This document shows, piece after piece, positions 22,143 to 22,216 of a DNA stretch of 64,000 bases; the stretch's first letter is position 1; each line of letters opens with the position of its first letter. The notes under the pieces were generated by a model. The model worked only from the letters and a program-made list of their open reading frames with translations. It was not told the origin of the DNA and searched no databases. The position numbers and the translations under genes are program-made. Source of the stretch: an uncultured cyanobacterium. GTDB taxonomy: Bacteria; Cyanobacteriota; Cyanobacteriia; Cyanobacteriales; CAWCAG01. The stretch is from contig CAWCAG010000005.1 of assembly GCA_963793425.1 (NCBI GenBank), positions 832,001 to 896,000 on the forward strand, in the 5' to 3' direction.

Positions 22143-22216
22143 GCCGCGTCCCAACCGAGAGAGCATACATACTTCCCTGTCACGGAATACAAACAAGCTT
22201 TCTTAACTTGCGCGGC
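22143..22216 (+). ncRNA. Y-RNA-like unit 5: carrier stem + bare Asp-type anticodon hairpin
   Basis: GCCGCGT/GCGCGGC stem, GAGAGAGCATACATAC..AAGCTTTCTTAACTT scaffold, cargo TTCC-CTGTCAC-GGAA (anticodon GTC). Confidence 0.75.

Follow-up and report, generated by a model that had tools for sequence, protein, structure and literature searches.

The locus: a Ro60-like gene preceded by five RNA modules

The window studied here is a stretch of 64,000 nucleotides (nt) from an uncultured cyanobacterium of the Cyanobacteriales (GenBank assembly GCA_963793425.1, contig CAWCAG010000005.1, positions 832,001 to 896,000 of the forward strand). It carries a gene for a Ro60-like protein and, upstream on the same strand, an array of five Y-RNA-like modules that share a scaffold. 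We focus on the module nearest to the gene, hereafter unit 5, which with its 74 bases is the smallest of the five; the Ro60-like gene starts 58 nt downstream of it. An initial annotation had read unit 5 as a minimal carrier that displays a tRNA-Asp anticodon stem-loop, possibly as a decoy or sensor. The features of the locus are collected in Table 1.

Table 1. Features of the Ro60-like locus, with positions counted from the first base of the window (SD, Shine-Dalgarno; ORF, open reading frame; aa, amino acids; R1, covariance model of the short units)
Feature	Position	Strand	Basis and remarks
Conserved 66-aa ORF heading the locus	20817-21017	+	tblastn: upstream of the array in 45/80 loci
Unit 1, scaffold with permuted tRNA-like domain (T arm, closed acceptor stem, D arm)	21039-21185	+	R1 46.3 bits
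Unit 2, scaffold with non-permuted cloverleaf and anticodon arm (loop CTCAAGA)	21224-21343	+	R1 57.1 bits
Unit 3, scaffold with permuted tRNA-like domain	21366-21511	+	R1 53 bits
Unit 4, scaffold with permuted tRNA-like domain	21539-21685	+	R1 39.5 bits
Ribosomal protein L7/L12 paralogue, between units 4 and 5	21714-22100	+	Pfam Ribosomal_L12 78.7 bits; TIGR00855 99.8 bits
Outer helix, 5' strand GGTAGCTGTCGC	22133-22144	+	Inverted repeat I11; includes the first two bases of unit 5
Unit 5, short Y-RNA-like module, GCCGCGTCCCAACCGAGAGAGCATACATACTTCCCTGTCACGGAATACAAACAAGCTTTCTTAACTTGCGCGGC	22143-22216	+	RNA fold; R1 71.7 bits, E 5e-13
Helix 1 of unit 5	22143-22149 with 22210-22216	+	RNA fold
Asymmetric internal loop of unit 5 (CCCAACC / AACTT)	22150-22156 opposite 22205-22209	+	
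Helix 2 of unit 5	22157-22164 with 22197-22204	+	RNA fold
Conserved box CATACATAC of unit 5	22164-22172	+	
Apical hairpin TTCC-CTGTCAC-GGAA	22173-22187	+	TTCC 22173-22176, loop 22177-22183, GGAA 22184-22187
Outer helix, 3' strand GCGACATCTATC	22229-22240	+	Begins 12 nt past unit 5
Anti-SD-like element CTATCTCT (consensus in relatives CTGCCTCC)	22236-22243	+	Overlaps the end of the outer helix
SD region GGAGGTAG of the Ro60-like gene	22262-22269	+	
Ro60/Rsr-like protein, 480 aa, predicted helical repeat ring and vWA domain	22274-23716	+	AlphaFold2 model and Foldseek

Identification of the partner protein from its sequence failed; its relation to Ro60 was found by a search with the predicted fold. 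In Pfam, VWA_2 alone was recorded, at 17.4 bits and below its cut-off; NCBIfam gave no match, phmmer against the PDB sequences returned nothing relevant, and the best that PHROGs offered was a weak 'RNA-binding protein' match (phrog_850, E 0.0014). The Pfam TROVE model (PF05731) has zero matches in the whole genome of the window, which is 98.6% complete, and it did match control genomes. The AlphaFold2 model, built with 30 homologues, reached a predicted local distance difference test score (pLDDT) of 83.2 and a predicted template modelling score (pTM) of 0.77. When this model was compared with the PDB by Foldseek, the top 11 matches listed were all Ro60, Rsr or TROVE proteins (E 3.6e-12 to 1.6e-9, template modelling score 0.57-0.70), aligned over the whole length (438-541 columns) with a sequence identity of 13-18%. 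They comprise Xenopus and human Ro60, Deinococcus radiodurans Rsr, a 'Trove domain' entry and a Thermus phage Ro60, with 9nep, 1yvp, 2nvo, 9kop and 9l5y among the structures matched. The metal ion-dependent adhesion site of vWA domains has the motif DxSxS...T...D; in the Ro60-like protein it is complete, and D303, S305, S307, T365 and D389 are invariant in the 30 homologues. The product of the gene is thus predicted, on the basis of its structural model, to have a Ro60 fold.

Members of this family are annotated in public records as 'vWA domain-containing' or 'hypothetical'. The family is large: 454 relatives occur among the GTDB species genomes, and of 8000 candidates scored in the protein collection, 2699 reach E <= 0.001. 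The related loci were collected from the GTDB species-genome collection: 462 pattern matches were obtained, 454 of which encode a relative of the Ro60-like protein, and the best 80 were used. Together with the window they make up the 81 sources referred to below. The FastTree tree holds 80 proteins, one row (L052) having been left out as its gene is truncated at 354 aa.

A conserved scaffold in unit 5 and its relatives

Units of less than 95 nt are called short here. An alignment of 51 distinct gene-proximal short units was the basis of the covariance model R1, for which matches were taken at E <= 0.01. The unit counts given here are based on R1 and on the gene-proximal set; an earlier regular-expression catalogue of 285 'units' was not used for counts, as it holds false positives, for example within the coding region.

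That unit 5 is built on the same scaffold as its neighbours, as the initial annotation had it, is confirmed by two observations. There are five copies of the scaffold's 5' and 3' boxes (repeat families D1 and D2) within 21034-22216 of the + strand, and a search of the window with R1 gives exactly five matches, with unit 5 at the top score. The four long units enclose tRNA-like domains. Units 1 and 3 are matched by the Rfam YrlA model (RF02553) at 21087-21153 (34.3 bits) and 21378-21504 (36.5 bits), respectively, both below its gathering score of 69 bits. Unit 2 is called by ARAGORN as tRNA-Leu(caa) at 21247-21319 and matches the Rfam tRNA model with 50.5 bits. In unit 4, helix 1 is the compensatory variant CCGTA/TACGG. 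At gathering thresholds Rfam found no match in the array besides tRNA hits. One of its tRNA matches, 21447-21620 (+, 33.8 bits), was rejected as an artefact: the acceptor/D-arm half comes from the end of unit 3 and the T-arm half from the start of unit 4, fused over an insert of 66 nt.

Unit 5 folds with -22.6 kcal/mol (z = -3.77), a stability equalled by none of 200 shuffles. Two helices separated by an asymmetric internal loop lead to the conserved box and to a small apical hairpin, in which a stem of 4 base pairs (bp) closes the 7-nt loop CUGUCAC. Across the 51 homologous short units, 91% of the cells of helices 1 and 2 are paired; both sides have changed at 10 of the 15 pairs, and the observed covariation was matched by none of 500 shuffles. 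With shifted pairings the paired fraction falls to 30-52%. The internal loop is itself conserved across units, as CCYAA.. opposite RACUU.

In the related cyanobacterial loci R1 gave 258 matches, distributed over 77 of the 81 sources, and all of them lie on the strand of the Ro60-like gene and upstream of it. No R1 match was obtained in L017, L028, L051 and L055, of which L028 has almost no upstream sequence. The unit nearest to the gene is a short one in 54 of the 81 sources, and the conserved order of the locus is 66-aa ORF, array, L7/L12 paralogue, last unit and Ro60-like gene. No further copies of the scaffold were accepted elsewhere in the genome of the window, in a search where R1 covered 150 of 3560 candidates and recovered two of the five known units. 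Loose genome-wide regular-expression scans yielded many false pairs, and the six best outside candidates, with at most 10.5 bits when filters were off, were not accepted either.

An outer helix and an anti-Shine-Dalgarno-like element in the putative leader

Unit 5 is itself enclosed by a helix of 12 bp, of which 11 positions pair in the window. In the relatives the strands of this outer helix have the consensus GGCAGTTGTCGC / GCGACAACTGCC. At least 10 of the 12 pairs can form in 40 of the 54 homologous leaders, in 21 distinct sequence combinations, and both sides have changed at positions 3, 8, 10, 11 and 12. Directly 3' of the helix stands the motif CCTCC, which is complementary to the strongly conserved GGAGGT(A/T)G ahead of the start codon. 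The anti-SD element of which it is part pairs with the SD region at eight of eight positions in the window. Among the 40 leaders with the outer helix, this pairing is 8/8 in 16 and 7/8 in 14; of the 800 windows taken as controls, 4% reach at least 7/8.

The minimum-free-energy fold of the window's leader (-36.6 kcal/mol) retains unit 5 and pairs the anti-SD element with the SD, while the 5' strand of the outer helix pairs with the start-codon region. The first codons of the Ro60-like gene (22275-22285, +, ATGACAACTATG) resemble the 3' strand of the outer helix, and it is they that pair with the 5' strand in this fold. Enforcing the outer helix changes the energy by +0.8 kcal/mol only. When each of the two states was enforced in 36 leaders, their energies differed by -8.3 to +2.3 kcal/mol.

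As a separate observation, heptamer repeats (GATAACT..., AAAATCT...) in variable copy number lie between the CCUCC element and the SD in L002-L006, L018, L022, L030, L062, L072 and L080, where the spacer grows with them from about 25 nt to over 90 nt.

Unit 5 as a proposed module of the leader

We propose that unit 5 is a leader-embedded, minimal Ro60-binding module of the five-module Y-RNA-like array, a reading to which we give roughly even chances. It is suggested by the gene-proximal position of unit 5, by the covarying outer helix and by the CCUCC element complementary to the SD. Unit 5 could serve as an autoregulatory operator or as a YrlB/Yrn2-type short Y RNA, or combine the two roles; its fold, its distance of 58 nt from the gene and its loop with five pyrimidines out of seven are those of a hairpin Y RNA of that type. 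In its setting, unit 5 would be transcribed within the leader of the Ro60-like mRNA. No promoter was found near it by a promoter consensus scan, in which one promoter-like site, a consensus match, appears at 20721-20750, ahead of the 66-aa ORF. A candidate promoter directly before the outer helix was dropped, since a TAnnnT hexamer occurs at an equal offset in only 14 of the 54 relatives. From its neighbourhood and by analogy, the scaffold would be a docking site for the Ro60-like protein, and the protein, when it occupies unit 5, would change the folding or the processing of the leader. Occupancy could then feed back on the translation of the Ro60-like protein itself, which would amount to autogenous control by a mimic of its RNA partners, and a short Y RNA of the YrlB/Yrn2 type, of about 75-100 nt, may also be released.

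Such roles ask of unit 5 only its scaffold. This fits the divergence found in 92 pairs of close relatives, where the apical loop changes at 0.226 per site, 4-fold degenerate sites of the gene at 0.221 and the unit outside the loop at 0.091; these rates, like those given below, are pairwise counts among close relatives, with non-independent pairs, and cover 80 of the 454 loci. The initial annotation was right to see in unit 5 a minimal version of a shared carrier; it had missed the Ro60 gene, the Y-RNA-like character of the scaffold and the leader setting.

Several observations weigh against this proposal. The Rfam YrlA model does not match unit 5 at all, at E up to 10, nor does Pfam TROVE match the Ro60-like protein at E up to 0.01, and the scaffold is tied to the protein by adjacency and analogy. 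The outer-helix motif was not recovered by a simple search in 14 of the 54 leaders. In the Nostocales only six of the eight anti-SD positions pair, and the pairing of anti-SD with SD gives no covariation signal, since neither element varies much. In constrained folds of many relatives, the outer helix coexists with a shorter CCUCC:GGAGG hairpin, so the two states are not strictly exclusive, and a strict two-state switch was dropped for this reason. Our claim extends to the predicted sequestration of the SD beside the outer helix. Finally, of the 22 loci without a short proximal unit, nine have the outer helix around a long unit (115-190 nt), so that minimality is not required for the role of the enclosed unit.

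The last observation is what would be expected if the enclosed RNA were the product and not just an operator. Unit 5 might then be only a trans-acting short Y RNA, analogous to YrlB/Yrn2, which is processed out and bound by the Ro60-like protein; the outer helix would be a processing signal without translational feedback, and the apical hairpin would recruit another factor. This is the best of the alternatives, yet we think it rather unlikely. It agrees with unit 5 having the same scaffold as the four long units, and with known hairpin Y RNAs beside rsr coming from a processed precursor, as reported in excerpts of PMC4201824. A loop that binds an effector should not, however, drift at about the synonymous rate, and the apical loop is not 7 nt long in 26 of the 54 relatives. 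Moreover, a pure processing signal leaves unexplained why an SD-complementary CCUCC follows the outer helix.

The apical loop and the anticodon question

The initial annotation had recognised CTGTCAC as a canonical tRNA-Asp(GUC) anticodon loop, and it is indeed identical to the loop of the single tRNA-Asp(GUC) found by ARAGORN in the whole genome of the window, whose anticodon arm is CCGCC-CTGTCAC-GGCGG. The unit 5 hairpin and this arm have an 11-mer in common (CCCTGTCACGG), i.e. the loop and its two closing pairs. When the loops of homologous short units are tabulated, as the initial annotation had suggested, the 7-nt length is kept in 28 of the 54, with a pyrimidine and U at positions 1-2 in 27 of these 28 and a purine at position 6 in 18. 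Among the 18 distinct 7-nt loops, three are identical to real anticodon loops in the host genome (Asp, Asn and Lys). The expectation by chance is 0.075 for random 7-mers of the same composition (P ~1.5e-4) and 0.72 when loop positions 1, 2, 6 and 7 are held fixed (P ~0.02). Fourteen of the 18 have at most one mismatch to a real anticodon loop. The tabulation shows the hairpin of the short units to be anticodon-arm-like as a class, with a triplet that is not conserved.

CTGTCAC itself occurs in 6 of the 54 short units, those of the window and of five closely related Coleofasciculus genomes; on the FastTree tree the window and these five are not sisters, and both fall within one clade of 27 rows. 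Other apical loops are CTGCCAC, CTGTAAC, CTGTTAA, CTTCCAC, CTTTTAC and CTTTTAA, and in the Nostocales CTG is followed by AATA, CACA, ATAC, ATTC, ATTT or AATC. The triplets GCC, UCC, UUU, GUA, GUU, GAA, GAU and GCA are found in short-unit loops besides GUC. A striking pair is L001:1407-1477 and L005:2847-2916, with the loops CTGTAAC and CACCAAA, four changes in 7 nt; their Ro60-like proteins differ by 2%, and outside the loop the two short units differ by one substitution and one deleted base.

Against the initial expectation, then, the loop is largely neither conserved in sequence nor constant in length. What holds of the idea that the displayed anticodon loops are functional is that the class is anticodon-like above chance; GUC is not what is kept. 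An Asp-specific function as a conserved feature was rejected on these counts and on the near-synonymous divergence of the loop, and a dedicated Asp decoy is not supported. Since the triplet is free to change, the Asp identity would be a state of the lineage and not the functional core. We hold with middling confidence, as part of the leader-module proposal, that the apical hairpin is a relic or a mimic of a tRNA anticodon arm.

The cloverleaf units of the array raise a similar question. In the 80 loci ARAGORN called 101 tRNA-like genes, each of them on the + strand; 75 have a 3-nt anticodon call and lie inside scaffold units of the regular-expression catalogue. U33 is present in 66 of these 75 cloverleaf units and a purine at position 37 in 71, and the loop equals a real anticodon loop in 27. 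In 72 orthologous cloverleaf pairs the triplet diverges by 0.273 per site, the four framing positions by 0.139 and the remaining body by 0.044, compared with 0.178 at 4-fold sites. The tRNA shape of the cloverleaf units is under selection; the identity of the anticodon is neutral or diversifying, two possibilities that pairwise counts do not separate. Many units of about 120 nt (e.g. L009:1965-2084 and L057:2165-2286) are complete cloverleaves joined to the scaffold via the acceptor stem. Among their 'anticodons' are some that would be unusual in a real tRNA, such as AUU, UAU, AAA, UUA and CUA, and the triplets vary between close relatives (GUA, GGA and UGA within Coleofasciculus).

The hairpin could still be taken as a displayed tRNA-Asp anticodon arm that serves as decoy, sensor or substrate of an anticodon nuclease of the colicin E5 type or of Tgt, which we judge improbable. 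Besides the 11 nt in common with the host arm, excerpts of PMC1635277 describe anticodon-arm minihelices as sufficient for cleavage by colicin E5 under a YGUN rule, and U33-G34-U35-C36 of unit 5 satisfies this rule. Bacterial Tgt accepts a non-tRNA hairpin with U-G-U positioned as in an anticodon loop, according to excerpts of PMC1950534; this determinant is present in the loop of unit 5, and Tgt is encoded in the genome of the window. The above-chance match of the relatives' loops to real anticodon loops also speaks for such a display, as does the pair L001 and L005, near-identical genomes that carry different loops, each one mismatch from a real one (Tyr and Trp, respectively). However, GUC is found in six of the 54 short units and UGU in eight, a pyrimidine occupies the position of purine 37 in 10 of the 28 7-nt loops, and the stem has 4 pairs instead of 5. 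The loop diverges at the synonymous rate, as expected without selection on its identity, and no nuclease or modification gene is conserved in the locus.

A bolder idea, likewise doubtful in our view, is that the locus is a tRNA-surveillance ribonucleoprotein, in which a divergent Ro60 works with a scaffold array displaying tRNA bodies and, in unit 5, a bare anticodon arm. The triplets would track anticodon-targeting enzymes, their fast turnover being matched to anticodon nucleases of phages or competitors or to Tgt-type modification. Unit 5, by its place in the Ro60 mRNA leader, would link damage to or modification of its Asp-type loop with synthesis of the Ro60-like protein.

Two improbable readings: a boundary element or a decaying copy

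Unit 5 begins 43 nt past the stop codon of the L12-like ORF, and in many relatives a T-rich stretch (mean 5.1 T per 12 nt) follows the GC-rich helix 1. It might therefore be a mere structural boundary without a protein-specific role, either a terminator or attenuator of the L7/L12-like gene or an RNase site, which we consider very improbable. The terminator scan found no site on the + strand within 20700-22400, and in the window the tail of unit 5, CTCAATAAATCG, is not T-rich. The short unit is also present in loci without the L12-like gene, e.g. L013, L014 and L016, and a terminator would require far less conservation than the ACATAC box and the sequence-specific internal loop show. It is hardly credible that unit 5 is a deletion derivative of a long unit, decaying and without function: its flanks (ACATACT ... 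ATAC.AAAC.AGCTT) do resemble unit 2 minus the cloverleaf body and its loop evolves neutrally, but position and length are kept in 54 of the 81 sources over deep cyanobacterial divergence, and its helices covary in a unit that has the top R1 score of all.

Comparison with known Ro60 and Y RNA systems

The nearest precedent for unit 5 is, by analogy, the hairpin Y RNA YrlB/Yrn2 beside rsr. In Mycobacterium smegmatis, YrlB is encoded between YrlA and rsr and arises by processing of a single precursor, and YrlB/Yrn2, like unit 5, is a short RNA beside the Ro60 gene on the same strand (excerpts of PMC4201824). Unit 5 differs from it in several respects. No sequence relation between the two is apparent; the 5' motif GNCGAAN0-1G, given for YrlA in the same excerpts, is found neither in unit 5, which starts GCCGCGTCCCAAC, nor in the family consensus of this strand, GCCGCGCCCTAAC. 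The partner of unit 5, with about 480 aa, comes from a separate family that escapes Pfam TROVE. An outer helix linked to an anti-SD element encloses unit 5, whose loop is moreover anticodon-like.

With YrlA, units 1, 3 and 4 have in common the permuted T arm, the closed acceptor stem and the D arm that are typical of it. The array is on the strand of the Ro60-like gene and no more than 1.3 kb away from it, and two of the array's units are sub-threshold YrlA matches, with scores well under the gathering score. In contrast, unit 5 has no tRNA-like body and consists of the scaffold with its 4-bp/7-nt hairpin. YrlA is described as having no anticodon loop in excerpts of bioRxiv 10.1101/312249, whereas the family of the window includes cloverleaf units with full anticodon arms in addition to a short unit with an anticodon-like hairpin.

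The cyanobacterial Ro60 proteins listed by Chen et al. in 2014 (PMC4201824, supplement, in part) have 533-534 aa, are annotated as TROVE and are accompanied by one YrlA of the GGYCGAA type. They occur in the same phylum and at a similar locus, with the Y RNA upstream of the gene. The protein of the window, with 480 aa and no TROVE match, therefore belongs to a separate, sequence-divergent family, and it is accompanied by up to five or more units on a different scaffold. We regard the locus as a variant of the Ro60/Y RNA system, with a divergent protein and a different scaffold.

The thrS operator mimics the anticodon arm of tRNA-Thr and acts as an autogenous translational operator. Operators of this type resemble the arrangement proposed here in that a copy of the RNA ligand of a protein stands in its own mRNA leader, by the ribosome-binding site. 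In unit 5, however, the putative mimic is the Y-RNA scaffold and not the anticodon-like hairpin, and regulation is a proposal.

We found no published description of this cyanobacterial family of Ro60-like proteins and Y RNAs in the literature searched, which did not cover some reviews. According to excerpts of PMC4201824, the bacterial Ro60/Y RNA systems known to date were discovered from TROVE-annotated proteins and with a YrlA model. The family of the window escapes both routes, as Pfam TROVE and Rfam YrlA fail on it, and yet it is widespread. For Y RNAs, the literature searched describes neither several modules arrayed on a common scaffold nor cloverleaf units with a retained anticodon arm, nor a minimal unit that is clamped beside an anti-SD element within the putative Ro60 mRNA leader; an L7/L12 paralogue and a 66-aa ORF as conserved parts of such a locus are not described there either. 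Should the leader unit be an operator, autogenous control by a Y-RNA mimic would here be proposed for a Ro60 for the first time. A reporter together with the protein would then also provide a simple handle for defining what in the scaffold determines the binding of Ro60.

Other genes and features of the locus

The genome has two L12 genes: the L7/L12 paralogue between units 4 and 5, and the canonical copy, which is located elsewhere on the same contig. A homologue of the paralogue is found at the equivalent position in 40 of the 80 related loci. A factor-recruiting ribosomal stalk protein is in this way encoded beside tRNA-like RNAs. The 66-aa ORF at the head of the locus has counterparts of 51-80% identity in the 45 related loci that carry it. 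It has no match in Pfam or NCBIfam, its best PHROGs match is marginal (E 0.041), and the Atlas gives 'hypothetical protein' clusters only.

Immediately past the end of the Ro60-like gene, but on the other strand, 23818-24392 (-) encodes a MazF/PemK-like toxin (81.5 bits) together with a MazE-like antitoxin (55.6 bits); tblastn found no such pair in the related loci. Downstream of the Ro60-like gene of an Okeania locus (L050:4999-5827), nine 3'-box-like matches follow one another with a spacing of about 83 nt, which may be an unrelated tandem repeat. On the far side of the array, a C-5 cytosine DNA methylase (19391-20641, -) adjoins an 852-aa protein with an Hsp70-like ATPase region and WD40 repeats (16735-19293, -), and such a methylase lies upstream of the array in 5 of the 80 loci. 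Further upstream, at 15072-15254 (-), the window carries a 6S RNA (Rfam RF00013, 90.6 bits).

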